This document shows positions 4,406-27,817 of a stretch of 31,871 nt of DNA, one piece after another (position 1 is the first letter of the stretch; the number at the start of each line of letters is the position of its first letter). The notes under the pieces were generated by a model. The model saw only the letters and a program-made list of their open reading frames with translations. It searched no databases and was not told where the DNA came from. Source of the DNA: a virus (lineage: Duplodnaviria > Heunggongvirae > Uroviricota > Caudoviricetes); IMG/VR virus record IMGVR_UViG_2548876962_000012, one strand, 5' to 3'. The translations under genes were made by a program, and so were the position numbers.

Positions 4406-4825
4406 TCGTGTTTCCGCTTCGCTGGAGCGCCTTTTCGCGCCATGTGATGAGTTCGGTCAGGCTCATGGGATACAGTTCTGATGGCGGCCAGTGAAATATC
4501 ACTGCCACATCCGCCATCAGGTCATCTACCGACAGATTTTTCGGAAACGTCACTGCACCGAGTTCGGCGACAAAAAACCGACCACCTTACCGGCCAGTTC
4601 CACAAGGTCAGGCAGTTCCAGCGCGGCGACTTCCTGCTCGGTCAGCATCGGTGCCGTCATGCGCGGCAGCACCTTAATAAGTGCATCGACTTCGGAGTGT
4701 GCGACCGAAGCCAGACTGACACCGCGAAGCGTCCCGGCATTAGGTTTCATCAGCGTGACCTGTTTGATAACCTGCTCACCACGTTTGACCGGATTTTCCA
4801 GGGTAATCACATTTTCTTTGTTCAT
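4398..4825 (-). CDS. E+E': gpE+E' programmed -1 frameshift product, about 142 aa
   Basis: Minus-strand slippery heptamer T6G (plus-strand a-run 4572-4577 plus 4571) near the 3' end of E. The -1 frame continues FFVAELGAVTFPKNLSVDDL...RSGNTNE to a TAA at 4398-4400 that overlaps the T start codon. Confidence 0.75.
4550..4825 (-). CDS. E: Tail assembly chaperone gpE, 91 aa
   Basis: 91-aa ORF between FII and T, ending ...GFLSPNSVQ; the slippery site lies in its last codons. Confidence 0.85.
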   Translation of the reverse strand: MNKENVITLENPVKRGEQVIKQVTLMKPNAGTLRGVSLASVAHSEVDALIKVLPRMTAPMLTEQEVAALELPDLVELAGKVVGFLSPNSVQ

Positions 4826-5412: not shown

Positions 5413-6603
5413 TTAATTGCTGTTAACCAAGGTGACCAGACTTGCCAGGTATCTTGAAGTAATACGCTGGCGCAGGGTCAGGTTTTCGAGGGGAGGCACC
5501 GGGGTATAGTCGTAGTCGATATACAGTTTTCCGGCCTTGAGGGTTTCCGCATCGTTGGATTCTTCACTGAACCAGCATGTGCCATCCACGATATAACCGT
5601 TGCTTTTCAGTTCGCGGAATTTGGCATTGATGCCATCAATGATGTCGCGAATCAGCGTTGCGGTGATGGGCTTATCAATAGCCCACATGTGCGCCTCAGC
5701 CATCGTGTCAGCCAGTACCTGCGCGGTGCGTGTGTAGCTTTCAAAGAGGAACAGTGGGTCATCGGAGCAGGTACGGTTACCCCAGAAACGGAAACCGTCG
5801 CGGCGAACCAGCGTTGTGACGCCTGCCTCGTTCAGCAGGTCAGCATCAGTGCCAGACTTCTGCAAATCCCAGAATACAGATGCGCTGATGCCGGTAACAC
5901 CGTTTACCCCGACGTTGGACAGCGTTTTATGCCAGCCCTGCTCCTGGTCGATTTTAGCGCGCAGCCCCAGCGCACGGGCGGTGGCATACGCGGTAGCGGT
6001 GGTACTGGTAACCGTATCCCATGCGAGGAAATCTGGCCAGATGACCATCAGCTCACGCTGGCTGAAATTCTGGCGGTAGGCTTTCACCTCGGAAATGGTT
6101 TTACAGCCCCATGCGCTGATATACCCGAATGCATTCAGTTCCTGGCATACCGATGCCAGTGCGACGGCAACCTCTTTGGTGTCCAGCCCCGGCACACCGA
6201 GAATGCGCGGTTTAACGCCGGTAACCGACTCAGCCCCCATCAGGGCTTTCAGTCCGGTGTACTGACCGTTTTCGTCGGTGGTGCCGATGATATTGGAAAC
6301 GGTCTGCGCGAGCTTCGTTTCCTCGTCGTCGCCGGTGCCGTCTTCCACACGCACAACAACGGTGACCGGTTTTGACTGGTCAGCGATGGCCTGCAACGAT
6401 GCCGCCAGCGTGCCTTTTTTACCGGCCTTTGCAATTGCGCTCTGCACATTGGTAATCAGCACAGGTTTATTGAGGGGGAAGGTTTCCGCATCCGCATCGC
6501 TGGCCGTGCAGACCATGCCGACAATGGCGGTGGATACGGTGGAAATGACGCGGGTGCCGTCGTTAATCTCCAGCACCTGCACGCCATGATGATAGTCGCT
6601 CAT
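5413..6603 (-). CDS. FI: Contractile tail sheath protein gpFI, 396 aa
   Basis: 396-aa ORF; P2 FI length and position at the head of the FI-FII-E-T-U-D operon. Confidence 0.9.
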   Translation of the reverse strand: MSDYHHGVQVLEINDGTRVISTVSTAIVGMVCTASDADAETFPLNKPVLITNVQSAIAKAGKKGTLAASLQAIADQSKPVTVVVRVEDGTGDDEETKLAQTVSNIIGTTDENGQYTGLKALMGAESVTGVKPRILGVPGLDTKEVAVALASVCQELNAFGYISAWGCKTISEVKAYRQNFSQRELMVIWPDFLAWDTVTSTTATAYATARALGLRAKIDQEQGWHKTLSNVGVNGVTGISASVFWDLQKSGTDADLLNEAGVTTLVRRDGFRFWGNRTCSDDPLFLFESYTRTAQVLADTMAEAHMWAIDKPITATLIRDIIDGINAKFRELKSNGYIVDGTCWFSEESNDAETLKAGKLYIDYDYTPVPPLENLTLRQRITSRYLASLVTLVNSN

Positions 6604-6697
6604 CCGTTTAACTCCGTGGTTAATGGGTGCAACTATTTTCTGTTGGGCAGTGCATGAGACGCTATTTGACCTGGCTGGTCAGTGGATGAAACAACAG

Positions 6698-6726
6698 ATA
6701 AAGAAAAGGCGGGCAATTCACCCGCC
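6698..6726 (-). terminator. Rho-independent terminator downstream of the HExxH cargo gene
   Basis: Minus strand reads GGCGGG-TGAATTG-CCCGCC followed by TTTTCTT (stem arms at 6708-6713 and 6721-6726). Confidence 0.5.
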
Positions 6727-6931
6727 TGTCCTGATTTGTACTCACTCATTTTCCGACTGACAATTTACTTAGCCCAAAAGCTATCAAATCTGACAGTCTG
6801 CTTCAGACAAAGAGCGGTCATTAAATGATAGAAGATTTTATTTCATTTTTGTGCCAGAAGCTGCCGCTCAGTAACTCCCGCAATAAATGGTGCGAAGAAT
6901 GAGCGTCTGGCGACCGAATTTCATTACCTTG

Positions 6932-7900
6932 TTATATGCCATTTTCAAGATCTGCGATTAGGTCAAAGCATAGCGATTTATAATCCTTTACGATCTTCGG
7001 CCGAATGGTTATTGAATGATATTTCAGCAACGCAAGGGCGAATGAGGAAAAATACAGCCAGAACCAGTCATCTTCCGGTAAATTGACATCTTGCACAGTC
7101 GCCGACCAACGCCCGTAAATGGGAGGATGAGTCTCTGAACCCGCGAGACGGTTTCTTCCTGTTGCGAAAAGGATAAAGGCGAATGCTAGAGCGATCCCCA
7201 TCATACGCTTCATCCTAACCTTTTCCGGGGGATACCCACTGCTTGCGGCGTACTCATCGATCTTGGATATCATCATATCCTTAGCGAACTGATCACACAG
7301 ATATTCTTCGTCCTTCGGGTCTTCCGGTGCATTTCCTTCAACTGAGAAAATTACGTGCTTCAGTTCATGTAAAAATACATATGCCGTAGCCATGCACATA
7401 AGATCATATACTGCAGCGCTCTCTGAATCTGACGGCCTACCCTTCTCAGGCTCAGGAATAGCCACTGGCCATTCAAAGTCGTCTTCATGAAATGCAGTGC
7501 TCAGGTCTTTCACTGCATCAAGTATCGACTTGAAGGCTTCATCTTCTGCTGCCTGATCTGGAATCTTGTTGATTTTGTTTATGTCGAGAGTGGCACCGCA
7601 TGATTTGAACAATTCAATCAACGAACAATAACAATGTAACGCCTGCATTCCCGCATAACTGAAAAGCCATATTTGACGCATTGATCTGCTGGTGTACTGG
7701 ATTGCGGAGAATCCTCCAGCATCTAAGTTAAATCCTTCGCGGTCACCAATCAGTCGGAACTGGGCATCATAATCGTTAGCGATAGATTCAATCTCTGATG
7801 CTCTCTCAGGAACAACACCGTCAAAAAGTTTTCGAACATTGTCTGTCGTTTCCACTAGTCCTCCTATGGCATATAAAAGTGCGTTATACCGGCCCCGCAA
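6932..7900 (-). CDS. Cargo protein with HExxH motif, putative zinc metallopeptidase, 322 aa (Z/fun position)
   Basis: AT-rich ORF between G and FI; HELKH at residues 178-182 followed by acidic residues; one hydrophobic segment (GIALAFAFILFATG); TTG start at 7900 preceded by a strong SD (AAGGAAG, 6-nt spacer); own downstream terminator. Confidence 0.6.
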   Translation of the reverse strand: MRGRYNALLYAIGGLVETTDNVRKLFDGVVPERASEIESIANDYDAQFRLIGDREGFNLDAGGFSAIQYTSRSMRQIWLFSYAGMQALHCYCSLIELFKSCGATLDINKINKIPDQAAEDEAFKSILDAVKDLSTAFHEDDFEWPVAIPEPEKGRPSDSESAAVYDLMCMATAYVFLHELKHVIFSVEGNAPEDPKDEEYLCDQFAKDMMISKIDEYAASSGYPPEKVRMKRMMGIALAFAFILFATGRNRLAGSETHPPIYGRWSATVQDVNLPEDDWFWLYFSSFALALLKYHSITIRPKIVKDYKSLCFDLIADLENGI

Positions 7901-8080
7901 GGTCGGCTTCCTTGCAAGCCAGATTACCTTGTAAGGTCAGAAAGTCCAATGACAACTTTATGTACGAAGCAGTAATTGAGCTACTACGTATAAATGACCG
8001 CTCCTGGCACAGAGCGGCCTCCCAGATTCGGCTTTACTCTGTGCCATAGATATGTAAGCTCCCACCAGAGCTCATACAAC

Positions 8081-8608
8081 TTATTGCGGCATTTCCGGCC
8101 ATTCAGGATTTGCAGGATCCACACGACTGACCAGAACGCTGTAGCGTTCCCATGTTTTAAGTCGGCTACGCTCCTCATCTGTTGCCATATTCAGCCTGAC
8201 AGCACGCTCCAGCGGCAAAATCACGGATTCAGCATCTGCAAGAAGTCTGGCTTTCCGATTTTCTGCCTGCTGCTGCAATTCCTCTGCCGTATAAATGCGT
8301 TTAATCACTTTGCCGTCCTTAAACATCCAGTTCCCTGAAATGTCCGCCCGTCGGTTAGCAGTAATATCCGCCACTTCAACAACACTTAATCCATCCGGTC
8401 TGATAGCTGTCACATCCTTTTCCACATAGTGGATGATATTATCTTTGTCGTACGCTATTTTTATCGTGTCATCAGCAAAATACTTTTGTTCTTCGTACCA
8501 GTTCTTACCATCTTCTGAAAAAAACCAGACAACATCAAAGTCCTTTGTCAATTGATATTGTTCAACCGTTTTTGGATTACCCGCCGAAATATTTTTTAAA
8601 TGCTGCAT
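8081..8608 (-). CDS. G: Tail fibre assembly chaperone gpG, 175 aa
   Basis: 175-aa ORF immediately downstream of H; length and position of P2 G. Confidence 0.85.
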
Positions 8609-8611
8609 AAA

Positions 8612-10861
8612 TTATACCTGCGCCACGTTATACCATGTCCCGTTAATGTATTTCTGCACCGGTCTGTAATATACGCCACCAATGTTATCGGCAGAGTTTG
8701 AGCCGGTATCCTGAACAATAATGCCGGTATATACGCAACCTGACGGAGCCTGATGCGTCCATGTAGTACCATTATTTGCTGGTTTATATGTAGATGCACC
8801 GCCCAGCCGCATGTCTCTCATATAACGTGAATCTGACTCAGTTTTGGTGTATGCACCAACATCTCCCGCTGAGGGTTTATGAGCAGTTGTATATAGTTGC
8901 GCCCATCCAGACCAGTTAGCATCTGTGGTATCTCGTCGGGAGCGAATATATGCCGGAGCATGAGCACCGCTGGTTCCACTCCAGCCAATAAGTAACTCAC
9001 CCTCTCCTACTGCGGTTACGCCAGTGAGATGAAGCACATTACCATAGGCTGTTGGGTAGCCATTGTTGTATGCCTCATACATCTGAACACCTGGTGTCCC
9101 CTTTACGCTCCCACCTAATGCAGTAACACGGTTTCTGGATACCAGTGTATTAATATTTATATCGGCAGAGCCATCAAATCTGACACCATTAATATTTCTT
9201 GCGTTCGCTAACTTCGTTGCTGTTGCAGCATTTCCTGAAAGGCTGGAAATAAATGGATGTGAACAGTAATAACCACGTCCATTTTTAAAATCCAGAATAG
9301 CCTGTGCGTTCGTGCTTTCTGTAGCGGGATTAGTTGCCCCCCACTTATATGTCGTCTGACCGACGACATAATCCTCTGTCGGAACAATAACCGTTAGCCC
9401 TTCCTCTGCAAGAATTTGTACAGGGAAAGCTCTGGCTTCAACATAAAAAACACTACATACATCATCATCTTTCAGGCTTGTAACAATGGAATGAATTGAA
9501 CGCTCATTAGTCTGATACGTCCAGAAATAACCTGCCGCATATGAACCACGATCAGTCCAGCCTCCGGGCATAACCATGCCATTAAACTCGCAGTTATTCA
9601 TTACATAATCGCTGTTATAACAACCAGTGGAAATAACGACGCGGGATGCCATTTCTCCTGAAAGGCTGGCAGCACGGCGAAAGATAACGGGATACCACTT
9701 CCCGGCAACGACATTTGCAGGGGCTGCAAACGAATACTTTCGCATTCCCTTTTTCTTATCCACTTCACCTTTGCTGTAAACATTAATGTTACTCAGGAAG
9801 CGTCCTTTATCAGGAATATCCGCACCGTTCTGATCTTTCTGAAGACGTTTTTCAGCATTGTCATAGGCAGACTTCACCGCTTTTGGTGTTGCGGCCAGCG
9901 TTTCAGAATCACTGTTGGTGGCGCTACTGAGCTGGACAAGCCCTTTTCGCGCCGTGGTGGCATCCTGTGCAGTGTATTTCCCGTTAGCAAGGTCATACGC
10001 GGCCTTTACCGCCTTTGGCGTTGCCGCAAGCATTTCAGAATCGCTGTTGGTGACGCTACTGAGCTGGACAAGACCTTTTCGCGCTGTGGTGGCGTCCTGT
10101 GCAGTGTATTTCCCGTTAGCAAGGTCATATGCTGCCTTTACCGCTTTCGGCGTTGCGGCGAGCGTTTCAGACGTGCTGTTAGTCGCACTACTGAGCTGAA
10201 CAAGGCCTTTTCGCGCGGTGGTAGCGTCCTGTGCGGTATATTTCCCGTTAGCAAGGTCATATGCGGCCTTAACCGCTTTCGGCGTTGCAGCCAGTGTTTC
10301 AGACGTGCTGTTGGTCGCACTGCTTAACTGAGTAAAACCTTTTGCGGTCAGCGAGGCGTCAGGGTGACGTCGTGACTGTTCATGTTCTGCAATTTTGTCA
10401 TCAACGTAATCCTGCGTTGCCATCACCGTTGTGGTGTCAATGGTCAGCTCCACTGAGGCCACACTGCTGACGATGATGACCATGCGGCAGGTCTGCGAAC
10501 GCCCTGAGCCTTCGGCAAGAGCTGGCTTATAACTTTCGGCCATGTTCGCCACGGCAATTAACGTTCCAGCATCATCGTACAGGCCAAGCTCACGCATCCA
10601 GAAACCGCCCACCTCCGGCGGAATAACCAGCTCTGCGATAATATAATTACTGTTTCGTTTGTCCTGGCTGATTTTGTTCAGCGCATGTCGCCAGACTTCG
10701 TGGATAAGCCCGGTCTGTCCGGCATCCGGGACAGGCAATTTACCACCGCCATCCCCGACGGCCATCGTGGTAATGTTGACCTTCCGCCCTCCCGGTGCGG
10801 TTGCCGCTGCCAGCTTTGCTGCACCGGCAGTGGTGATAACGGTTTTGAATTTTGTGCTCAT
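8612..10861 (-). CDS. H: Tail fibre protein gpH, 749 aa
   Basis: N-terminus MSTKFKTVITTAGAAKLAAA typical of P2-family H; four tandem 44-aa tail-fibre repeats; a variable C-terminal region. Confidence 0.9.
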   Translation of the reverse strand: MSTKFKTVITTAGAAKLAAATAPGGRKVNITTMAVGDGGGKLPVPDAGQTGLIHEVWRHALNKISQDKRNSNYIIAELVIPPEVGGFWMRELGLYDDAGTLIAVANMAESYKPALAEGSGRSQTCRMVIIVSSVASVELTIDTTTVMATQDYVDDKIAEHEQSRRHPDASLTAKGFTQLSSATNSTSETLAATPKAVKAAYDLANGKYTAQDATTARKGLVQLSSATNSTSETLAATPKAVKAAYDLANGKYTAQDATTARKGLVQLSSVTNSDSEMLAATPKAVKAAYDLANGKYTAQDATTARKGLVQLSSATNSDSETLAATPKAVKSAYDNAEKRLQKDQNGADIPDKGRFLSNINVYSKGEVDKKKGMRKYSFAAPANVVAGKWYPVIFRRAASLSGEMASRVVISTGCYNSDYVMNNCEFNGMVMPGGWTDRGSYAAGYFWTYQTNERSIHSIVTSLKDDDVCSVFYVEARAFPVQILAEEGLTVIVPTEDYVVGQTTYKWGATNPATESTNAQAILDFKNGRGYYCSHPFISSLSGNAATATKLANARNINGVRFDGSADININTLVSRNRVTALGGSVKGTPGVQMYEAYNNGYPTAYGNVLHLTGVTAVGEGELLIGWSGTSGAHAPAYIRSRRDTTDANWSGWAQLYTTAHKPSAGDVGAYTKTESDSRYMRDMRLGGASTYKPANNGTTWTHQAPSGCVYTGIIVQDTGSNSADNIGGVYYRPVQKYINGTWYNVAQV
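9850..10375. repeat. Four tandem 132-bp in-frame repeats inside gene H
   Basis: Period exactly 132 bp (landmark tttcaga at 9900, 10032, 10164, 10296); encoded 44-aa unit KGLVQLSSATNS(T/D)SETLAATPKAVKAAYDLANGKYTAQDATTAR. Confidence 0.85.
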
Positions 10862-10871
10862 TATTCCTCAC

Positions 10872-11402
10872 TTATCCGGGGTAAACCGTAATTACATCGC
10901 CGTCGTAAGCCACACCACCGGCGAACAGGTAGCCGGGAATGTCCCGGGTAATGTTCAGGCCAATAAGATGACGACTTGCAGGTTTGGCATCAGCAATAAG
11001 CCGTTCCATTTCCTGATACATTGCCTCTGTGATGCCACTTTCCAGTACACCAATATCAAGCCGGAAGGTGCCGGGCGGGTCACTGTTTTCCCACCACTCC
11101 GTCACGTTGATGAGATAGCCGAGCGGCTCCACCACGCGTCGGATTGCGCCGACAGTGCCTTTATGACAATGAATGAAATACGCATCGCGAATAACGGCGC
11201 GTTTTGTCGCTTCCGGCCACTTTTCATCCCACCTGTCGACCGAAAACGCCCACGCCAGCCACGGCAGCAGATTTGCCGGACAGGTGTCCGGGTTCCACAG
11301 CTCACGAATACTGACCGGCGTTTTTTCAATTTCCGCACAGGCTTTTGCGGCAGCAATTTCAAGCGGTGATGAGCCGGTCGGCAGCAGGCGCGAATCACTC
11401 AT
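10872..11402 (-). CDS. I: Baseplate assembly protein gpI, 176 aa
   Basis: 176-aa ORF between J and H; P2 I length and position. Confidence 0.85.
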   Translation of the reverse strand: MSDSRLLPTGSSPLEIAAAKACAEIEKTPVSIRELWNPDTCPANLLPWLAWAFSVDRWDEKWPEATKRAVIRDAYFIHCHKGTVGAIRRVVEPLGYLINVTEWWENSDPPGTFRLDIGVLESGITEAMYQEMERLIADAKPASRHLIGLNITRDIPGYLFAGGVAYDGDVITVYPG

Positions 11403-12303
11403 CCGAGCCTCCGGTCACGACGCGGTATTCGGTACAGAAAGACGCCTGCGTATTGTTGAGCACGATGTCGGCCAGTGGTGCGGCCAGCTCGACACGCTGC
11501 ACGCCTTCCACATGCAAAGCGGCATAAATGGCAGACAGACGGATGTCACGCCCCAGCCGGTGTTGTGCCGTGATGTACGCTTCCAGTTTTTTCACGGCAG
11601 CAGCGCGGATGGGTTCGCTTTCGGGGCCAGGGTAAAGGTAAAGCGTGGCGTTTATCTGGTATTCAACGATGGCGGCAGACTGCACGGTCACGCGGTCGGC
11701 CACTGGCCTGACGTCCTCGCCATTAAGGGCGTTACGCACCACAGCCAGCAGGTCTTCGGATGCGACACCGTTATTTTCACGTGACAGCACAGAGATGGTG
11801 ACACAGGCCGGAGACGGACTGGTGACAGAGATATCCGCGACACGCCCGTCGGCACTGCGGCCATGATACTGATAGGCTCCCACCGACCCGGCGACGCTTA
11901 AGCCTTCAAACGCCTGCTGAATACGCAGACGATAATCCGTGTCAGATTCCATCACTGCCGGTGTCGGCGGGATGGTCGAATCATCTGCCGGGGTGATAGT
12001 CAGGCGCGTGGTGTTGTAATTGGCACCAATCACATCAAGGTCATTACCGGCTGCACAGGCCAGCATCACCGCCCGTGCGGCCTCATTCACACGCTGACGC
12101 CAGATAAGCTCGCGATAAGCATTTTCCTCCAGCAGTTTGACGAGAGGCTCGGATTCCAGCGTCAGGGTACGGGCGACCGCCTCCTGCTGGTCTTCCGGGT
12201 AAAGGGAAATCAGTGTCGCCTTGCGTTCGGCAAGAATGGTTTCAAAGTCCAGCTCCTCGAGCACATCCGGTGCGGGTAGCTGGTTCAGGTCGATAATCGG
12301 CAT
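11395..12303 (-). CDS. J: Baseplate protein gpJ, 302 aa
   Basis: 302-aa ORF; P2 J length and position; overlaps the I start by 8 nt. Confidence 0.85.
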   Translation of the reverse strand: MPIIDLNQLPAPDVLEELDFETILAERKATLISLYPEDQQEAVARTLTLESEPLVKLLEENAYRELIWRQRVNEAARAVMLACAAGNDLDVIGANYNTTRLTITPADDSTIPPTPAVMESDTDYRLRIQQAFEGLSVAGSVGAYQYHGRSADGRVADISVTSPSPACVTISVLSRENNGVASEDLLAVVRNALNGEDVRPVADRVTVQSAAIVEYQINATLYLYPGPESEPIRAAAVKKLEAYITAQHRLGRDIRLSAIYAALHVEGVQRVELAAPLADIVLNNTQASFCTEYRVVTGGSDE

Positions 12304-12307
12304 GGTT

Positions 12308-12655
12308 TCAACTCACAGGGATGGTTAACGAAAGTGGCTGGCCGGTGTCGTTGTGCTGGCCGGTTAACGTGACCGTCATTCGCCCGTCAAAACTGCGCGC
12401 CGTGGTGACAGATGACAGGGTGACGCGGGGTTCCCATTTCAGTACCGCCATGTAACAGGCGACCTTAATCTGCAACTCAAGCGCCGGGGTCTGCGGCTGG
12501 TCAATCATTGACGCCAGCAACGAGCCGTAATCACGACGCATCACCCGTGAGCCGACCGGTGTGCGCAGGATATCGCCGATACTCTGGCTGATATGCTCAA
12601 GGTCAGTGACAGTCAGGCCATCACTGCGATTCATTCCGAGATAACGCGCTGTCAT
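12308..12655 (-). CDS. W: Baseplate wedge protein gpW, 115 aa
   Basis: 115-aa ORF; P2 W length; ATG start overlaps the V stop (ATGA). Confidence 0.85.
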   Translation of the reverse strand: MTARYLGMNRSDGLTVTDLEHISQSIGDILRTPVGSRVMRRDYGSLLASMIDQPQTPALELQIKVACYMAVLKWEPRVTLSSVTTARSFDGRMTVTLTGQHNDTGQPLSLTIPVS

Positions 12656-13293
12656 TTTGTCCCCTGTGTCCAGTTTTCTCCTGACTTAACACCACCGTGA
12701 CCGTGGTCATCCACCTGAACGCCGTTAGAAGTGAATTTCCCGTCGGTATGCTCGATGTTGCCGTGCATCTTCCCGCCCTTCTGCACTTCCAGCGTGCCGG
12801 TAGTCAGCTTGTTGGTGCAGACCACCTCCGGTGTGTCCAGGGTGATGCGAGTTGACGCTTTCACCATGACCACCGGCACCGTGGCGGTAACAGAATCAGA
12901 AGCCGTCACGCTGGCCGTTTTAATTCCGCTTGCCGTGAGCGCACTGGTTTCGGGTTCATACTCAATCACCGCCCCGTCAGGGAAACGGATGTACAGGGCA
13001 TCCGCCGACGCAGACGGCGCGGGGTTATCACCGGAATAAATCCCCGGCAGAACAAACGCCGTGTCGAGTTCGCCGCCCACGGACAGAATCAGCACCTGCT
13101 CCCCCACCGAAGGTGCCCACCATGTGCGTGAACGTCCGGCACGATGGGTCAGCCACTGAAGCCAGTCAGTGCACATGCCGCCGGTCTGCACACGGCAGCG
13201 ACCGGCTTTAAGGTTGGTTTCGACGACAAGGCCAGTACGAATCATGTTGCGCAGTGCGCGCGCGAGTTCCTGAATATTTGCGAGAGTGTTCAT
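12652..13293 (-). CDS. V: Baseplate spike protein gpV, about 213 aa
   Basis: Start assigned to the ATG at 13291-13293 (MNTLANIQELARAL); the longer track ORF begins at a TTG six codons upstream. Confidence 0.8.
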   Translation of the reverse strand: MNTLANIQELARALRNMIRTGLVVETNLKAGRCRVQTGGMCTDWLQWLTHRAGRSRTWWAPSVGEQVLILSVGGELDTAFVLPGIYSGDNPAPSASADALYIRFPDGAVIEYEPETSALTASGIKTASVTASDSVTATVPVVMVKASTRITLDTPEVVCTNKLTTGTLEVQKGGKMHGNIEHTDGKFTSNGVQVDDHGHGGVKSGENWTQGTK

Positions 13294-13376
13294 GCATGTG
13301 AGATTGCACAATATATAAAAGTTATGCTATCTGGATTCATTTGTAGAACCACCAGACAACATTCAAGGAGAGCGTA

Positions 13377-14162
13377 ATGGTCAGCTATAATGTGACTAAT
13401 GTGTGGGAGCTAATCGTCTTGTATCTTTTGGTCTTTGTAGTATTAGCATTTTTTAGCTTTGGTAAAAGTAACCTTATGAGGCTTATTGCACATTATTTCA
13501 AATTTGGATATTCAGATAAAAAATTAAAAAGACTGGACCGCGAGTGGCGCGACATTCAACTATTTAAAATAATTAACGGAATCAATGTATCAGGCATCAA
13601 AGATGTGAAAATGATACAGCAGGGGTTGATTGATGGAAAACTAAAAACATCGGATTTTTTCCTTACTCGCTTCTGGGGAGACATAACAGAACCGCCATGC
13701 ATCACAAAAACAATGAGTGCAGTCCTGGCCGGAATTCTTTATATTACCTTCGCATGTTGCATACACAACGAGCAATCTGCCATAGTAGAGGATGCCATAG
13801 CCATACCATATAAAAATATGATGTACCATGTTTATAATGACAAGGTTCTTTTGTTCTCCGACAATAAAACAGATAAGTTCTATAAAGCGTTTAGCATTGC
13901 CGATTGCAAGAGACTGCAGAACACTTTTGTAACAGACACACTTCCTGCAATCGCCTGCAATAAGCTCTTACAGCTAAACGAGGAGGACTCCGAATGGTTA
14001 AGTCAGGAGATTAAAGATAATAACAGCCACAGAAAAACATTATTAATAATATCCCTCGTCTATTTCACTTCAGGTCTGGTTATACTTCTGTCATATACAA
14101 AATTCCTTTACGCCAATAAAAAAGTTGTAGAATACAAATCATCAAATAAAAACCACTCATAA
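13377..14162 (+). CDS. Cargo membrane protein, three predicted TM helices, 261 aa (orf30 position, opposite strand)
   Basis: Very AT-rich ORF on the opposite strand to all flanking late genes; ATG with SD AAGGAG at 7-nt spacing; hydrophobic segments at the N-terminus, middle (MSAVLAGILYITFACCI) and C-terminus (LLIISLVYFTSGLVILLSY). Confidence 0.6.
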   Translation: MVSYNVTNVWELIVLYLLVFVVLAFFSFGKSNLMRLIAHYFKFGYSDKKLKRLDREWRDIQLFKIINGINVSGIKDVKMIQQGLIDGKLKTSDFFLTRFWGDITEPPCITKTMSAVLAGILYITFACCIHNEQSAIVEDAIAIPYKNMMYHVYNDKVLLFSDNKTDKFYKAFSIADCKRLQNTFVTDTLPAIACNKLLQLNEEDSEWLSQEIKDNNSHRKTLLIISLVYFTSGLVILLSYTKFLYANKKVVEYKSSNKNHS

Positions 14163-14168
14163 TTCTCT

Positions 14169-14203
14169 AAACATTGAGCGACCAGCACAGCCGCTCAATG
14201 TTT
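14169..14203. terminator. Hairpin between the convergent cargo membrane gene and gene S (possible bidirectional terminator)
   Basis: 12-bp perfect inverted repeat aaacattgagcg / cgctcaatgttt with an 11-nt loop, followed by TTTAATT on the plus strand. Confidence 0.45.
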
Positions 14204-14233
14204 AATTGCGCATCAGCCTCTGCCTAGATAAAA

Positions 14234-14686
14234 CTAACGCTCAAGGTGAGCCAGGATAATCTCTTCAATCATCTGCACATCCTCACCGGTAAAGCCGAGC
14301 AGAGGACGCGTCGGATAATCAATTTTCTTACCGTCTTTCCGGGTTTCTTCCGACAGACCGAACTGATGCACACTGGCGATTTTCGGTGACTTTCCGCCGT
14401 AAAACTCCATTGATGCCTGTTCCGGGCTGGCGCGGATATGCAAAAAACGACTGGTGATAAGTTTCGCAAACATTTTTCGCTTAACACGACCGGTCTTTTT
14501 TCTGGCGCTCTGCTGCTGGCGTGGTGCGTAGGGTGTGCCGTCCGGGGCTTTCTGTGCCATCACCCGGCGCTGCTGACTCTGCCGCAGATGTTTCGCCAGT
14601 TCGGTGCTCAGTCGCCGACGCCCTGATGGTGACAGTGATTCAATCAGCCCGGTCAGCCGGTCTTCAAAACGCTTAAACTCATTCAT
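14234..14686 (-). CDS. S: Tail completion protein gpS, 150 aa
   Basis: 150-aa ORF; P2 S length and position; overlaps the R stop. Confidence 0.85.
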   Translation of the reverse strand: MNEFKRFEDRLTGLIESLSPSGRRRLSTELAKHLRQSQQRRVMAQKAPDGTPYAPRQQQSARKKTGRVKRKMFAKLITSRFLHIRASPEQASMEFYGGKSPKIASVHQFGLSEETRKDGKKIDYPTRPLLGFTGEDVQMIEEIILAHLER

Positions 14687-15146
14687 CCCACTTGCTCACC
14701 AGTTCGCCATTGATATAAAGCTCCATCGGGCGGGTGACCGGCTCCGGCGGCGGAGGTTCCGGGATATTCTTCACATGCAGTGCGCCGTCCACCTCACTGA
14801 CCAGCGTGCGCTCGGTCAGCATCAGGCTGATGCTGATATCAAAGCTGCTGTCATTGTTGATGTCCGCATAAAACGTGAAGCCCTTTTTCTGGCCTTCGTC
14901 GGTGGTCATGATGTCGGGCTGATTTTCCCGCAGCCACGCCAGCACCGGCACGATGAGCAGGTCAAAATCACCGGTAAAGTCGGTCACAATGACATTGAGC
15001 GTGTAACGCTTTTCGAATGACAGCGACGTCGCCAGCGTGGAGGCAATACTCCCGTTATCCACGAATATCCGCAGCATCTCGGGACTGGTTTTCAGCACCG
15101 TGACGGCATCAGTCAGCGCCCTGCGCAGGCTGTCGGGTTTGAGCAT
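14679..15146 (-). CDS. R: Tail completion protein gpR, 155 aa
   Basis: 155-aa ORF; P2 R length and position. Confidence 0.85.
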   Translation of the reverse strand: MLKPDSLRRALTDAVTVLKTSPEMLRIFVDNGSIASTLATSLSFEKRYTLNVIVTDFTGDFDLLIVPVLAWLRENQPDIMTTDEGQKKGFTFYADINNDSSFDISISLMLTERTLVSEVDGALHVKNIPEPPPPEPVTRPMELYINGELVSKWDE

Positions 15147-15399
15147 CGTTTTCGTCCTGACAGTGTTTAATCATTTTTACCTGGCTGGCACAGCGTGCCA
15201 GCGCGTTCTCAAGCAGCCGGATATCGGCACTTAAATCGCCGTTCTTCTGCGGGTCACTGCCCGGCATCGGGCAAAGACTCACTTTCGGGCAGGCGTTGTG
15301 GACAATCACTGGCGTCTGCGCAGGCCGGGCGCTGGTGCAACCGGCGCACAGCATCAGGCAGGTCAGCACCGTACCAGCGGCGAAAATCTTCGTTTTCAT
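15109..15399 (-). CDS. lysC: LysC, Rz1-like outer-membrane lipoprotein spanin, 96 aa
   Basis: Starts MKTKIFAAGTVLTCLMLCAGCTS (signal peptide with lipobox-like LCAGC); lies in an alternate frame overlapping the 3' part of lysB and the start of R. Confidence 0.7.
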   Translation of the reverse strand: MKTKIFAAGTVLTCLMLCAGCTSARPAQTPVIVHNACPKVSLCPMPGSDPQKNGDLSADIRLLENALARCASQVKMIKHCQDENDAQTRQPAQGAD

Positions 15400-15679
15400 T
15401 GAGTAACCTCGTGATGGTTTTCTCGCGCTGTGCTTCACGCTTCGCGGCGTTCTCCAGTTCCTGACGCAGTGCCACCTGCGCCAGCTCGTTTTTGTCTGCC
15501 CTGGTGATGGCAACATGAAGCTGATTTTTCAGCATGGTGATGGTCGTCTGCTGTTCACTGGCGACGTTATTCGCCCTGTCCAGCGAGGCGCGCAGGCTGG
15601 CATTTTTGTGTTTCACCAGAAACAGACCGGCCACCGCCAGCGATAACAACACGACCAGCACAATCATCAGCTTTGACAT
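15254..15679 (-). CDS. lysB: LysB, Rz-like inner-membrane spanin, 141 aa
   Basis: N-terminal TM helix (LMIVLVVLLSLAVAGLFLV) followed by a coiled-coil region; 141 aa as in P2 LysB. Confidence 0.8.
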   Translation of the reverse strand: MSKLMIVLVVLLSLAVAGLFLVKHKNASLRASLDRANNVASEQQTTITMLKNQLHVAITRADKNELAQVALRQELENAAKREAQREKTITRLLNENEDFRRWYGADLPDAVRRLHQRPACADASDCPQRLPESESLPDAGQ

Positions 15680-20602: not shown

Positions 20603-22375
20603 ATGACCATCACCACAGACACCACTCTTTTACACGACCCGCGTCGTCAGGCGGCGCTGCTGTACTGGCAGGGGTTTTCCGTGCCGCAGATTGCCGCCAT
20701 GTTGCAGATGAAACGCCCGACGGTGCAGAGCTGGAAACAGCGCGACGGCTGGGACAGCGTTGCCCCCATCAGCCGTGTCGAAATGAGCCTGGAAGCGCGG
20801 CTGACCCAGCTCATCATCAAACCGCAGAAAACCGGCGGTGACTTCAAGGAAATTGACCTGCTGGGACGCCAGATTGAACGACTGGCACGGGTCAACCGTT
20901 ACAGCCAGACCGGCAACGAGGCAGACCTTAATCCGAACATCGCTAACCGCAACAAAGGCGGGCGTCGCAAACCGAAAAAGAATTTTTTCAGTGACGAGGC
21001 CATCGAAAAGCTGGAGCAGATTTTCTTTGAGCAGTCTTTCGAATATCAGTTGCACTGGTATCGCGCCGGGCTTGAGCACCGCATCCGCGATATCCTGAAA
21101 TCCCGCCAGATTGGCGCGACGTTTTATTTTTCCCGCGAGGCGCTGCTGCGCGCCCTGAAAACCGGTCATAACCAGATTTTTCTGTCGGCCAGTAAAACGC
21201 AGGCGTATGTGTTCCGCGAATACATCATCGCCTTTGCCCGGCTGGTTGACGTTGACCTGACCGGTGACCCGATTGTCCTGGGCAATAACGGCGCAAAACT
21301 GATTTTTCTCGGCACCAACTCCAACACCGCACAGAGCCATAACGGCGACCTGTACGTCGATGAGATTTTCTGGATCCCGAATTTTCAGGTACTGCGTAAG
21401 GTGGCATCAGGTATGGCCTCACAGAGTCACCTGCGCTCGACCTATTTCTCCACCCCGTCCACGCTGGCGCACGACGCCTACCCGTTCTGGTCGGGTGAAC
21501 TGTTCAACCGGGGTCGCGCCAGCGCCGCCGAACGCGTGGAAATCGACGTCAGTCATAACGCCCTTGCCGGAGGTCTTCTCTGTGCGGACGGCCAGTGGCG
21601 GCAGATTGTCACCATTGAGGACGCGCTGAAAGGCGGCTGCACGCTGTTCGACATTGAGCAGCTCAAACGTGAAAACAGCGCCGACGATTTTAAAAACCTG
21701 TTCATGTGTGAATTTGTTGACGACAAAGCGTCGGTGTTCCCGTTCGAGGAGCTGCAACGCTGCATGGTCGACACGCTGGAAGAATGGGAAGACTATGCGC
21801 CGTTTGCCGCGAATCCGTTCGGCTCCCGCCCGGTATGGATTGGTTACGACCCGTCACACCGTGGCGACAGTGCCGGATGCGTGGTGCTGGCACCGCCGGT
21901 GGTGGCCGGTGGCAAATTCAGAATACTTGAGCGTCACCAGTGGAAAGGCATGGACTTTGCCACTCAGGCTGAATCCATCCGCAAACTCACCGAAAAATAC
22001 AACGTCGAATACATCGGTATTGATGCCACCGGCCTCGGTGTCGGCGTGTTCCAGCTCGTGCGCTCGTTCTATCCCGCCGCGCGCGACATCCGCTACACGC
22101 CGGAAATGAAAACCGCAATGGTGCTCAAGGCAAAAGACGTCATCCGCCGTGGCTGTCTGGAATATGACGTCAGCGCCACCGACATCACCAGCTCGTTTAT
22201 GGCTATCCGCAAGACCATGACCAGCAGCGGACGCAGCGCCACCTATGAGGCCAGCCGCAGCGAGGAAGCCAGCCACGCCGACCTCGCCTGGGCGACCATG
22301 CACGCCCTGTTAAATGAGCCACTCACCGCCGGTATCAGCACTCCGCTGACATCCACCATTCTGGAGTTTTACTGA
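20603..22375 (+). CDS. P: Terminase large subunit gpP, 590 aa
   Basis: ATG at 20603 with SD GAGGT; 590 aa as in P2 P; stop overlaps the Q start (TGATG). Confidence 0.9.
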   Translation: MTITTDTTLLHDPRRQAALLYWQGFSVPQIAAMLQMKRPTVQSWKQRDGWDSVAPISRVEMSLEARLTQLIIKPQKTGGDFKEIDLLGRQIERLARVNRYSQTGNEADLNPNIANRNKGGRRKPKKNFFSDEAIEKLEQIFFEQSFEYQLHWYRAGLEHRIRDILKSRQIGATFYFSREALLRALKTGHNQIFLSASKTQAYVFREYIIAFARLVDVDLTGDPIVLGNNGAKLIFLGTNSNTAQSHNGDLYVDEIFWIPNFQVLRKVASGMASQSHLRSTYFSTPSTLAHDAYPFWSGELFNRGRASAAERVEIDVSHNALAGGLLCADGQWRQIVTIEDALKGGCTLFDIEQLKRENSADDFKNLFMCEFVDDKASVFPFEELQRCMVDTLEEWEDYAPFAANPFGSRPVWIGYDPSHRGDSAGCVVLAPPVVAGGKFRILERHQWKGMDFATQAESIRKLTEKYNVEYIGIDATGLGVGVFQLVRSFYPAARDIRYTPEMKTAMVLKAKDVIRRGCLEYDVSATDITSSFMAIRKTMTSSGRSATYEASRSEEASHADLAWATMHALLNEPLTAGISTPLTSTILEFY

Positions 22376-23409
22376 TGAGCAAGAAAAAAGGGAAAACACC
22401 GCAACCTGCGGCAAAAACAATGACCGCCAGCGCCCCGAAAATGGAGGCATTCACCTTTGGTGAGCCGGTGTCGGTACTCGACCGCCGTGACATTCTGGAT
22501 TACGTCGAGTGCATCAGTAACGGCAGATGGTATGAGCCACCGGTCAGCTTTACCGGTCTGGCAAAAAGCCTGCGTGCTGCCGTGCATCACAGCTCACCGA
22601 TTTACGTCAAACGCAATATTCTGGCCTCGACATTTATCCCGCATCCGTGGCTTTCCCAGCAGGATTTCAGCCGCTTTGTGCTGGATTTTCTGGTGTTCGG
22701 TAATGCGTTTCTGGAAAAGCGTTACAGCACCACCGGTAAGGTCATCAGACTGGAAACCTCACCGGCAAAATATACCCGCCGTGGCGTGGAGGAGGATGTT
22801 TACTGGTGGGTGCCGTCCTTCAACGAGCCGACAGCCTTCGCGCCCGGCTCCGTGTTTCACCTGCTGGAGCCGGATATCAATCAGGAGCTGTACGGCCTGC
22901 CGGAATATCTCAGCGCCCTTAACTCTGCCTGGCTGAATGAATCAGCCACGCTGTTCCGCCGCAAGTATTACGAAAACGGCGCACATGCCGGATACATCAT
23001 GTACGTCACCGATGCCGTGCAGGATCGCAACGATATCGAAATGCTCCGCGAAAACATGGTGAAGTCGAAAGGCCGCAACAACTTTAAAAACCTGTTTCTC
23101 TATGCCCCACAGGGGAAAGCCGACGGCATTAAAATTATCCCGCTCAGTGAAGTGGCAACGAAGGACGATTTTTTTAATATCAAAAAAGCCAGCGCCGCTG
23201 ACCTGCTGGACGCGCACCGCATCCCCTTTCAGTTGATGGGCGGCAAGCCGGAGAACGTCGGGTCGCTGGGCGATATTGAGAAAGTGGCAAAGGTCTTTGT
23301 CCGCAATGAGCTTATCCCGCTACAGGACAGGATCCGCGAGATAAACGGCTGGCTCGGCCAGGAAGTCATCCGCTTTAAAAACTACTCACTGGACACTGAC
23401 AACAGCTGA
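22375..23409 (+). CDS. Q: Portal protein gpQ, 344 aa
   Basis: 344-aa ORF adjacent to cos; P2 Q length and position. Confidence 0.9.
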   Translation: MSKKKGKTPQPAAKTMTASAPKMEAFTFGEPVSVLDRRDILDYVECISNGRWYEPPVSFTGLAKSLRAAVHHSSPIYVKRNILASTFIPHPWLSQQDFSRFVLDFLVFGNAFLEKRYSTTGKVIRLETSPAKYTRRGVEEDVYWWVPSFNEPTAFAPGSVFHLLEPDINQELYGLPEYLSALNSAWLNESATLFRRKYYENGAHAGYIMYVTDAVQDRNDIEMLRENMVKSKGRNNFKNLFLYAPQGKADGIKIIPLSEVATKDDFFNIKKASAADLLDAHRIPFQLMGGKPENVGSLGDIEKVAKVFVRNELIPLQDRIREINGWLGQEVIRFKNYSLDTDNS

Positions 23410-23801: not shown

Positions 23802-24254
23802 TTATGCTTCCTCTGTATTCATAAGTCTTAAAAGAATTTCTCCAGTGCTAGCATCAGACATTAGATCATTTAACGCTTTGATTAACGTTTCTTTATCTTT
23901 GCACCTAACATCCCGTTTGTTATAAGAAATCACACATGGATAACCATCTGATTCATTTATCTTCCAAACAGCAATGTTCTCTTTAACTTCTGTTTGCTCT
24001 CTCTTAGTTACGAACGATAGAGCTTCGTAATCGATGTAAGGGTTGATGTTTGTAATCGAACTCACAACGGCAGTAAGCGCTGTCTGATTAGGTGCGAGTT
24101 TTTTTTCACTCGTAACTTTCAAAAACACTCGCCCTTGACTAAGCTCCTTTACACTGTCACTTAAGTCACTGATAACACTAAAAATTTCTTCTTTATTTGA
24201 TCTTGCTTTTTTGGCTGCCTCTAACCCCACAGCTAATGAATTTTTGAAATCCAT
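23802..24254 (-). CDS. Cargo protein of unknown function, 150 aa, downstream partner of the EEP gene
   Basis: AT-rich ORF; ATG 4 nt after the EEP gene stop with a GAGAGG SD-like element; no TM segments or recognisable motifs. Confidence 0.6.
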   Translation of the reverse strand: MDFKNSLAVGLEAAKKARSNKEEIFSVISDLSDSVKELSQGRVFLKVTSEKKLAPNQTALTAVVSSITNINPYIDYEALSFVTKREQTEVKENIAVWKINESDGYPCVISYNKRDVRCKDKETLIKALNDLMSDASTGEILLRLMNTEEA

Positions 24255-24258
24255 TTTT

Positions 24259-25161
24259 TTAACCTCTCGTAATTACAGCGATAACAGGTAAATGATCAAA
24301 GTTAGTTTTTGGACTTGTCACCAAATTTTTAAAGACTTCATCGTTAATGATTTTAACCTCATCCTCCAAAAGATTCCAATCTCCACCAGAAATGAATGAA
24401 GAGGAGAAAATAATTTGATCAAATGTATGCCAACGGGTTACAGCACCGCCACTGTAATAATATGTCCCGTAAGTACTCAAATGATGATCTTCTGATGGAA
24501 AACTAATTGAAGCCCCCATAAAATTCCAAAAAGGGTTGTATAAAAAAATATCTTTTTTGACAACCAAGTCTCTATCCCTTGTTGCCCCTAAAGCATGTGT
24601 AATAGATTTATTAAAGGGATCGTCATTGTAATCACCTAAAAGAATAAAATACTTTCCTGACTTTTCCTCTATACATCTACTGATCGCTCCTCGCAAAGCT
24701 TTTCCTAATTCATATCGTTTTGGCATTTCTTCATTAGAATCATTACCTCTCATAGGCCAATGCGATATGTAGAAAAAAAAATGATCCCCACTATTATTAT
24801 GCATGAGCTGAACTTCTTGCCCGGCTCTTACCGCTCCTAACAATGACTGTTCAACAATACTTTTACTATCAATGTAAGTGAAAGTAGCTAGCTTTATAAG
24901 AATGCACATATCATGTTTTATGCTTCCTTCAGTGAAAGTCCCATCATATATTATGAACCCTTTCTCTGAGAAAATCTCCTCTAAAACCTTAATATCTGAT
25001 GGTGATATTTCTCCAAGACATAGAATATCAACATTATGACTCATCAAAATATTTGTTATAAGAGCAAATGCTACATCCAACTCTTCAGGAGTAGAACGAT
25101 CTCTTTTAACCGCAGGAGATATCCCCGTATTCCACCAAGCGATTGAAACAGCCTCACACAT
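24259..25161 (-). CDS. Cargo EEP-fold (endonuclease/exonuclease/phosphatase family) protein, 300 aa
   Basis: Very AT-rich ORF; ordered EEP signature motifs: WWNTG near the N-terminus, DILCLGE (the LCLQE-type motif), LLGDYNDD (GDxN), and FDHLPV (SDHxPV-type) at the C-terminus. Confidence 0.7.
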   Translation of the reverse strand: MCEAVSIAWWNTGISPAVKRDRSTPEELDVAFALITNILMSHNVDILCLGEISPSDIKVLEEIFSEKGFIIYDGTFTEGSIKHDMCILIKLATFTYIDSKSIVEQSLLGAVRAGQEVQLMHNNSGDHFFFYISHWPMRGNDSNEEMPKRYELGKALRGAISRCIEEKSGKYFILLGDYNDDPFNKSITHALGATRDRDLVVKKDIFLYNPFWNFMGASISFPSEDHHLSTYGTYYYSGGAVTRWHTFDQIIFSSSFISGGDWNLLEDEVKIINDEVFKNLVTSPKTNFDHLPVIAVITRG

Positions 25162-27552: not shown

Positions 27553-27817
27553 ATGAGCCAAAAGCCTCTGAACAACGCTTGCTGAGTTGCTCAACCTGCG
27601 CGTTTAAATCAGCAAAAGACTTTGCGCTTCCGGTCAGAATATCGTGATGCATCAGGCCGGAAACGAGCTGGCTTAATTTCGGGTAATAACCAACCACCGC
27701 CAGCCATTCCTGACCGGCGTTTTTACCGCTTTCCGCTCTCTTTTTCTCGTGGAGAATAAACTGGAAGCTGTCACTGGTAACGACATAACGTTCGCCAATT
27801 TCAATACGAATACTCAT
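27542..27817 (-). CDS. Early-operon small protein, 91 aa, hypothetical
   Basis: ORF overlapping the A start by 11 nt and the upstream gene stop (ATGA); position of a P2 early-operon small ORF. Confidence 0.6.
   Translation of the reverse strand: MSIRIEIGERYVVTSDSFQFILHEKKRAESGKNAGQEWLAVVGYYPKLSQLVSGLMHHDILTGSAKSFADLNAQVEQLSKRCSEAFGSYGR

Follow-up and report, generated by a model that had tools for sequence, protein, structure and literature searches.

The question raised by this locus was what is encoded by the long, AT-rich open reading frame (ORF) located between the tail fibre assembly gene and the tail sheath gene of a P2-like prophage. The whole stretch of DNA analysed (IMG/VR record IMGVR_UViG_2548876962_000012, 31,871 nucleotides), hereafter the window, was a P2-like prophage read on the minus strand: ogr came first and the integrase last, with the tail, baseplate, lysis, head, and early genes following one another in between. 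P2 gene G (tail fibre assembly, 8081–8608, minus strand) and P2 gene FI (tail sheath, 5413–6603, minus strand), assigned from the ORF list and the annotation, formed the upstream and downstream flanks of the slot, respectively. The spacer between them was 1,477 nt long and contained one long ORF. The GC content of the ORF and of the entire spacer was 0.45, compared with 0.56 in FI and 0.52 across the window. In blastn comparisons, homology to P2 and P2-EC46 extended to position 6803 and restarted at 7993–7998; together with the junction alignments, this defined a variable slot at 6804–7997 relative to these two backbones. With other P2-like prophages of E. coli, which carried different cargo, the homology reached 6822 and restarted at 8001, which defined the slot as 6823–8000. 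The slot corresponded to the fun(Z) position of the P2 record, and the fun locus is the second P2 defence hotspot described by Vassallo et al. (PMC9519451). The preliminary description had placed an AT-rich ORF at the Z/fun locus, flanked by G and FI, and the coordinates, the GC content, and the flanking genes were all borne out. The ORF shared the slot, the AT-rich composition, and the non-essential nature of Fun(Z) of P2 and other Z/fun cargo. Fun(Z), credited in the P2 record with blocking T5, is however an unrelated protein of 528 residues encoded on the opposite strand.

Two further AT-rich regions were observed elsewhere in the prophage. The tin/old slot (23802–25161, minus strand), the second P2 cargo slot, held a two-gene insert with a GC content of 0.35–0.42 between the portal gene Q (22375–23409) and the replication gene A (25279–27594). 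One of its genes encoded a 150-residue protein that matched neither Pfam nor PADLOC, and the other a 300-residue protein of the endonuclease/exonuclease/phosphatase family (PF19580, E 6.8e-16), likewise unmatched in PADLOC; the pair is a candidate for an unclassified defence system. An AT-rich ORF of 261 residues (13377–14162, plus strand), oriented against the late genes, had the baseplate gene V on one side and the tail-completion genes on the other, a position like that of orf30. It matched no Pfam or PADLOC model and is named "hypothetical" in RefSeq.

The preliminary description had regarded the ORF as an autonomous insert with its own start signals and terminator. The mobile unit was delimited by the blastn boundaries as a cassette of about 1.2 kb (6796–8015), composed of a 3′ untranslated stretch, the gene (hereafter lit), and a 5′ leader or regulatory stretch. 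A discrete cassette was thus confirmed, whereas the proposed start codon and the proposed terminator were not. The hairpin that had been taken for the terminator of the insert (6698–6726) was real; its form was that of an intrinsic terminator, and it was found by scanning at 6697–6727 (minus strand; AGGCGGGTGAATTGCCCGCCT followed by TTTCTTT). It was assigned to the P2 backbone because homology to the P2-type backbones continued to 6803 or 6822, and it was also present in P2, in P2-EC46, and in further P2-like prophages whose cargo differs. When the annotated activator site and transcription start of pF in P2 were mapped onto the window, the hairpin was located directly upstream of the F-operon promoter, just before the late-promoter region. 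It is the terminator or insulator of the slot itself, available to any cargo that occupies it. A second hairpin (7998–8017, minus strand), with the form CCGCTC-N8-GAGCGG followed by TCATTTAT on the minus strand, followed gene G and preceded lit. In the alignments it was kept at the end of the cassette in the plasmid and Pectobacterium copies, and it may act as a terminator or insulator. Long inverted repeats resembling transposon ends were rejected for the cassette; only an 11-nt pair was seen by eye, GAGCGGTCATT at 6812–6822 and AATGACCGCTC at 7993–8003, and other pairs were short and at chance level. The possibility that the cassette also holds a partner gene or a further small ORF was rejected, since none was conserved and no neighbour was common across contexts.

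The mechanical ORF (6932–7900, minus strand) was 322 residues long when read from a TTG codon, for which a strong Shine–Dalgarno sequence had been claimed. The conserved start was found instead at GTG 7855, with an AGGAGG Shine–Dalgarno sequence (7860–7865, minus strand), read directly from the sequence, 4 nt before it. The AGGAGG and the start were kept in the plasmid, Pectobacterium, and Thiomonas copies, and ATAGGAGGACTA-GTG was conserved in the same copies, with TTG as the start codon in Pectobacterium. In the Pectobacterium and Thiomonas copies, in-frame stop codons preceded the conserved start, either at the position corresponding to the window TTG or downstream of it. These stops and the conserved AGGAGG-GTG ruled out TTG 7900. 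The start of the near-identical gene of E. coli SC487 in RefSeq fell at the position of window 7855, and 307 residues was the length of most full-length homologues found. Because of the homologue length, the RefSeq start, the conserved Shine–Dalgarno sequence and start, and the upstream stops, the gene was placed at 6932–7855 (minus strand), with GTG 7855 as the likely start codon and a product of 307 residues. No sigma-70 promoter was recognised by a consensus scan, and the candidates TATAAC and TTATAT, picked by eye upstream of the Shine–Dalgarno sequence, were too weak for a claim. Rfam matches in the 5′ and 3′ stretches were at chance level only.

The product was assigned to a family by profile comparison. 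Pfam PF10463 (Peptidase_U49), whose gathering score is 23.9, matched residues 143–269 of the 322-residue ORF with 33.7 bits. The PADLOC Lit model matched with an E value of 1.8e-14, and the NCBIfam model NF007238, "phage exclusion protein Lit", matched with an E value of 1.5e-67 and 228 bits over profile positions 5–304 of 309. A PHROG of unknown function also matched. The four profile libraries (Pfam, PADLOC, NCBIfam, and PHROG) agreed. The curated equivalog cut-off of NF007238 is 274 bits, which e14 Lit exceeded with 349.8 bits; at 228 bits, the window protein was therefore considered a member of the family and not an equivalog. The near-identical SC487 protein carries the RefSeq name "phage exclusion protein Lit family protein". 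BLASTP aligned the protein with e14 Lit at 24% identity (E 9e-12), with HELKH on HEISH, and hhalign aligned a profile of 56 homologues with e14 Lit at a probability of 97.6% over 225 columns. PF10463 was present in 65 of the 65 homologues found. The NCBIfam and hhalign matches indicated a single domain of about 300 residues, collinear with Lit over its full length.

The resemblance to Lit (peptidase U49) had originally been a hypothesis, with a Pfam search for Peptidase_U49 or ImmA/IrrE-type families proposed as a check; the first family matched above threshold, and PADLOC, NCBIfam, and hhalign all spoke in favour of it. The ImmA/IrrE-type alternative found no profile match. Neither Peptidase_M78 (ImmA/IrrE, COG2856) nor Peptidase_M48 was matched in Pfam even at E values up to 10, no HTH repressor gene was adjacent to lit, and hhalign to the M48 peptidase YcaL gave a non-significant probability of 2%. 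Membership of M48 or ImmA/IrrE was accordingly rejected for lack of profile support.

The U49 family was small. Of the 1.84 billion cluster representatives (50% clustering) searched, 766 matched at E ≤ 1e-3; a stricter limit of E ≤ 1e-30 left 192, and among the 150 matches listed most were 300–320 residues long. Judged from these sequences, e14 Lit is an outlier, and the clade of the window protein forms the bulk of the U49 family representatives.

The zinc-binding and catalytic motif was predicted at HELKH, which had been noted at residues 178–182 of the 322-residue reading and was present there, corresponding to H163-E164-L-K-H167 of the 307-residue protein (codons 7355–7369, minus strand). 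It aligned with HEISH of e14 Lit (H160-E161-x-x-H164). The two histidines and the glutamate were invariant in 103 relatives that were 20–49% identical to the window protein; the alignment of these family members included e14 Lit and P2-EC46 ORF1. Such conservation of the motif is far beyond chance. The invariant residues of the 103 sequences were P16, E17, H163, E164, H167, E184, D188, R217, and R249 in the 307-residue numbering. Residues E184 and D188 belong to the segment E183-E184-Y-L-C187-D188 (codons 7292–7309, minus strand), on the helix that follows the one with HExxH. By analogy with the gluzincin architecture, E184 is a candidate third zinc ligand. Residue R249 closes the segment H243-P244...R249 (HPPIYGR; codons 7109–7129, minus strand), in which P244 was found in at least 90% of the sequences. 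The window copy was typical for members, with G66S as its sole departure from the 90% family consensus. One otherwise well conserved homologue, P0017 (68% identical), had HKLKH for HELKH, with the catalytic glutamate replaced by lysine; this may be a sequencing error or a variant that is naturally inactive.

The AlphaFold2 model built on the family alignment (pLDDT 95, pTM 0.93) was mostly helical, with a three-stranded sheet. The HExxH motif was located on a helix of residues 144–173, and residues E183, E184, and D188 on a helix of residues 180–196. The model was confident as judged by pLDDT and pTM, and its fold may be zincin-like. Searches of the PDB sequences with phmmer and with a profile yielded no relative of solved structure, and Foldseek gave nothing significant against the PDB and BFVD. 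The single hydrophobic segment that had been described was present at residues 213–233 of the 307-residue form. Its 19-residue Kyte–Doolittle mean was 1.5, and the corresponding helix (residues 210–231) lay within a stretch modelled at a block-mean pLDDT of at least 92; on these grounds a membrane protein was rejected. Early descriptions of e14 Lit placed it at the membrane, and a peripheral association with the membrane may occur.

Among characterised proteins, the closest counterpart was Lit of e14, a defective prophage of E. coli K-12 (b1139; MEROPS/Pfam Peptidase U49). Both are single-domain proteins of about 300 residues, collinear throughout, with HExxH in equivalent positions and the EE..(A/C)D and HP...R motifs after it, and both are encoded by a prophage-borne single gene with no partner. 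They differed in sequence (about 24% identity; 228 bits for the window protein versus 349.8 for e14 Lit in the NCBIfam model) and in carrier, which is e14 in one case and the P2 Z/fun slot in the other. Within the same slot, the closest relative was ORF1 of the P2-EC46 Z region (AJ512680, CAD54901; 294–1295 of the record), which lies between G and FI of a P2-like phage and is annotated in GenBank just as "putative lysogenic conversion protein". It was Lit-like, with HEVRH aligned on HELKH, a BLASTP E value of 3e-26, and 82.9 bits with the NCBIfam Lit model, but it was only 25% identical to the window protein, was 333 residues long with extra insertions, and had a second ORF alongside. Therefore, a second, very different clade of the Lit family has occupied the same P2 slot.

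The gene was found in two of 5,426 complete E. coli genomes, on the chromosome of SC487, in the same P2-like slot, and on one plasmid. In a collection of 50,697 phage records no record carried the gene, and the sole Lit-like match was the distant P2-EC46 ORF1. The SC487 prophage was the closest RefSeq prophage to the window, with a backbone identity of 98.0–98.8%. The cassettes of the two prophages were 99.9% identical, whereas their backbones differed by 1.2–2%; over the lit stretch, 2 of 1,501 bases differed. The sole coding difference in lit was E94K (window 7574–7576), inside the stretch of residues 62–94 in which replacements on the P2 lineage cluster. The tail-fibre gene H (8612–10861, minus strand) contained a unit of about 44 residues (…KGLVQLSSATNS.SETLAATPKAVKAAYDLANGKYTAQDATTAR…) repeated in tandem three to four times, and was 69 nt shorter in the window than in SC487. 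Because of the backbone identity, the window was regarded as a prophage distinct from, and closely related to, that of SC487.

Outside P2-like prophages, the cassette (6796 to 8008 or 8015) was 96.7–97.1% identical to one present in 411 plasmid records. Of these, 401 were from Klebsiella and most were conjugative; the plasmids examined in detail were of the IncF and IncHI types. The Klebsiella-type cassette of the IncF and IncHI plasmids (for example WP_223861284 and WP_023316418) shared this nucleotide identity along the leader and the 3′ stretch, together with the same start and Shine–Dalgarno sequence; it was unlike the window cassette in 18–20 amino-acid differences and in its position, divergent beside genes for a TerB-N protein, an ATPase, and a DEAD-helicase. 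A Pectobacterium parvum chromosome shared the stretch 6778–8017 at 90% identity, and a Thiomonas genome shared the coding part at 87%. A recent preprint reported that Lit occurs mostly on plasmids, with a homologue in a single P2-like prophage that was probably a recent acquisition (10.64898/2026.02.27.708500). The present searches independently reproduced that distribution, with plasmids as the main carriers and a P2-like prophage as a rare one.

The neighbours of lit on the plasmids were the TerB-N, ATPase, and DEAD-helicase trio, divergent from lit. The trio, observed at 9634–15455 of plasmid locus L002 and at 7634–13220 of loci L010 and L011, consisted of a protein with a TerB N-terminal domain, an ATP-binding protein, and a DEAD/DEAH helicase, and always adjoined lit; its composition presumably resembles that of the Shango defence system. 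Elsewhere, lit was found beside a HEPN gene, beside TniQ with integrases and MazEF, beside a type I restriction–modification system with a Schlafen-like ATPase, beside DUF2326/CTD10/HNH genes in an integrase-bounded island, and once beside the housekeeping men/pab genes. No neighbour gene was conserved in the seven contexts examined besides the P2-like slot. Since the neighbours differed everywhere, the gene was considered a stand-alone unit, located mostly in defence islands.

Beside the plasmid copies of lit, relics of the P2 backbone corresponding to window 6796–6822 and 8001–8015 were found. Pieces of the slot flanks also adjoined lit in Pectobacterium. In an integrase-bounded island of E. 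coli, the clearest relic, 76 nt long and 76% identical to window 8003–8078, was located upstream of the lit homologue and collinear with it. The relics were placed at 4709–4784 of the E. coli island (L012), at 8001–8027 and 9206–9213 of L002, and at about 7850–7866 and 9055–9099 of L005. Such relics outside P2 suggest that the cassette has trafficked through the P2 Z/fun slot.

Taken together, the gene very probably encodes a latent zinc metallopeptidase of the Lit/Peptidase U49 family, carried as a one-gene abortive-infection cassette in the Z/fun slot. Its membership of the family and its role as defence cargo are the firmest part of this interpretation and can be held with high confidence. 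Directly supported were the profile-level family membership, the intact frame, the invariant HExxH, E184, and D188, the discrete cassette, and the lack of a conserved partner; the cassette was also common to conjugative plasmids and defence islands. e14 Lit is a latent zinc protease, and the Gol peptide of the T4 major capsid protein gp23 binds domains II and III of EF-Tu (PMC3014915). e14 Lit then cuts EF-Tu between Gly59 and Ile60, so that translation stops and the infection is aborted (PMC3014915). By analogy with e14 Lit, the window protein would be present at a low level and inactive in the lysogen. On infection by another phage, a phage protein would create the substrate complex, and the protease would then cut EF-Tu or another essential translation factor. 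Translation would stop, and the infected cell would die or stall without phage release, by which sibling lysogens, and hence the prophage, would be protected. For this clade, EF-Tu as the specific target and a capsid protein as the specific trigger are tentative, with slightly less than an even chance of being correct. An identical substrate and trigger could not be assumed because of the identity of about 24% and the score below the equivalog cut-off, and the chance that both are the same as in e14 Lit would be no better than even. The searchable literature contained no phenotype data for this clade.

A first alternative is that the protein has the same fold and abortive logic as Lit and a different specificity: another phage protein would be sensed, a host factor other than EF-Tu at Gly59–Ile60 would be cut, or both, and transfer from plasmids would have been followed by a retuning of the P2 allele. 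Apart from the low identity and the sub-threshold score, the outlying position of e14 Lit, with the clade of the window protein as the bulk of about 190–770 representatives (50% clustering), is consistent with such a divergence, and so is the pattern of recent sequence change. The window and plasmid alleles were separated by 18–20 amino-acid differences and 5–7 silent ones. The dN/dS ratio of the window against the plasmid copies was 0.75–1.1, compared with 0.2–0.4 for deeper pairs. When polarised with outgroups, the P2 lineage had 12 non-synonymous and 3 synonymous derived changes, and residues 62–94 held 6 of the 12. However, these counts are small, the cluster was noticed only after the data had been seen, and part of the 62–94 stretch is variable across the family anyway; the excess of replacements may have arisen by relaxed constraint or by a retuning of specificity. 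Moreover, the protein was collinear with Lit from end to end, in its catalytic core as well as in overall length. This alternative is possible, though on balance unlikely.

A broader form of the same idea, which is a little more doubtful still, is that the clade of the window protein is the main body of U49 with a different trigger and/or substrate, that residues 62–94 are a retuned specificity surface, and that the P2 Z/fun slot serves as a shuttle. If this were true, the slot would export ready-made cassettes to other elements, such as the plasmids, Pectobacterium, and the E. coli island.

It is improbable that the gene is an unselected passenger drifting towards a pseudogene, with no present function for the lysogen. 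A dN/dS ratio near 1 on the recent branch, the lack of a recognisable promoter, and the great rarity of the gene in E. coli (2 of 5,426 genomes) would fit such a passenger. Nevertheless, the frame was intact at the modal length of 307 residues, all invariant residues were kept with one departure from the 90% consensus, and the Shine–Dalgarno sequence and the start were conserved. The cassette was also 99.9% identical between two prophages whose backbones were 1.2–2% apart.

The last alternative, a zincin with a non-defence role such as ImmA/IrrE-like repressor cleavage or M48-like membrane quality control ("lysogenic conversion"), is very improbable: its HExxH, ExxAD-like, and HPPxxxR motifs look like those of YcaL and it has one hydrophobic helix, but neither Peptidase_M48 nor Peptidase_M78 was matched in Pfam, hhalign to YcaL was not significant, the helix lay in a confidently modelled stretch, no HTH repressor gene was found beside lit in any context examined, and the genomic neighbourhoods were defence islands. 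The M48, M56, and M13 gluzincins (BepA, Ste24, YcaL, BlaR1, and neprilysin) showed no significant sequence or profile similarity to the window protein. The spacing from HExxH to the glutamate is 56 residues in YcaL and about 17 in the window protein, and the SHPPxxxR motif of YcaL resembles the HPPIYGR of the window protein. The resemblance to M48 was confined to motifs and fold.

Since the 1980s–90s, Lit has been a textbook example of a protease acting in abortive infection. The finding is already known in kind and in annotation and represents an ordinary if uncommon case. Little in it is new in kind, as Lit is known, the Z/fun slot is a described hotspot, annotation pipelines name the protein, and the 2026 preprint notes the lone P2-like Lit. 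Its value lies in a compact, intact, portable cassette from a large uncharacterised branch of Lit, about 24% identical to the sole studied member, for which near-identical plasmid alleles exist for comparison. Such a cassette could show whether capsid-sensing cleavage of EF-Tu is a family-wide property or is peculiar to e14 Lit.
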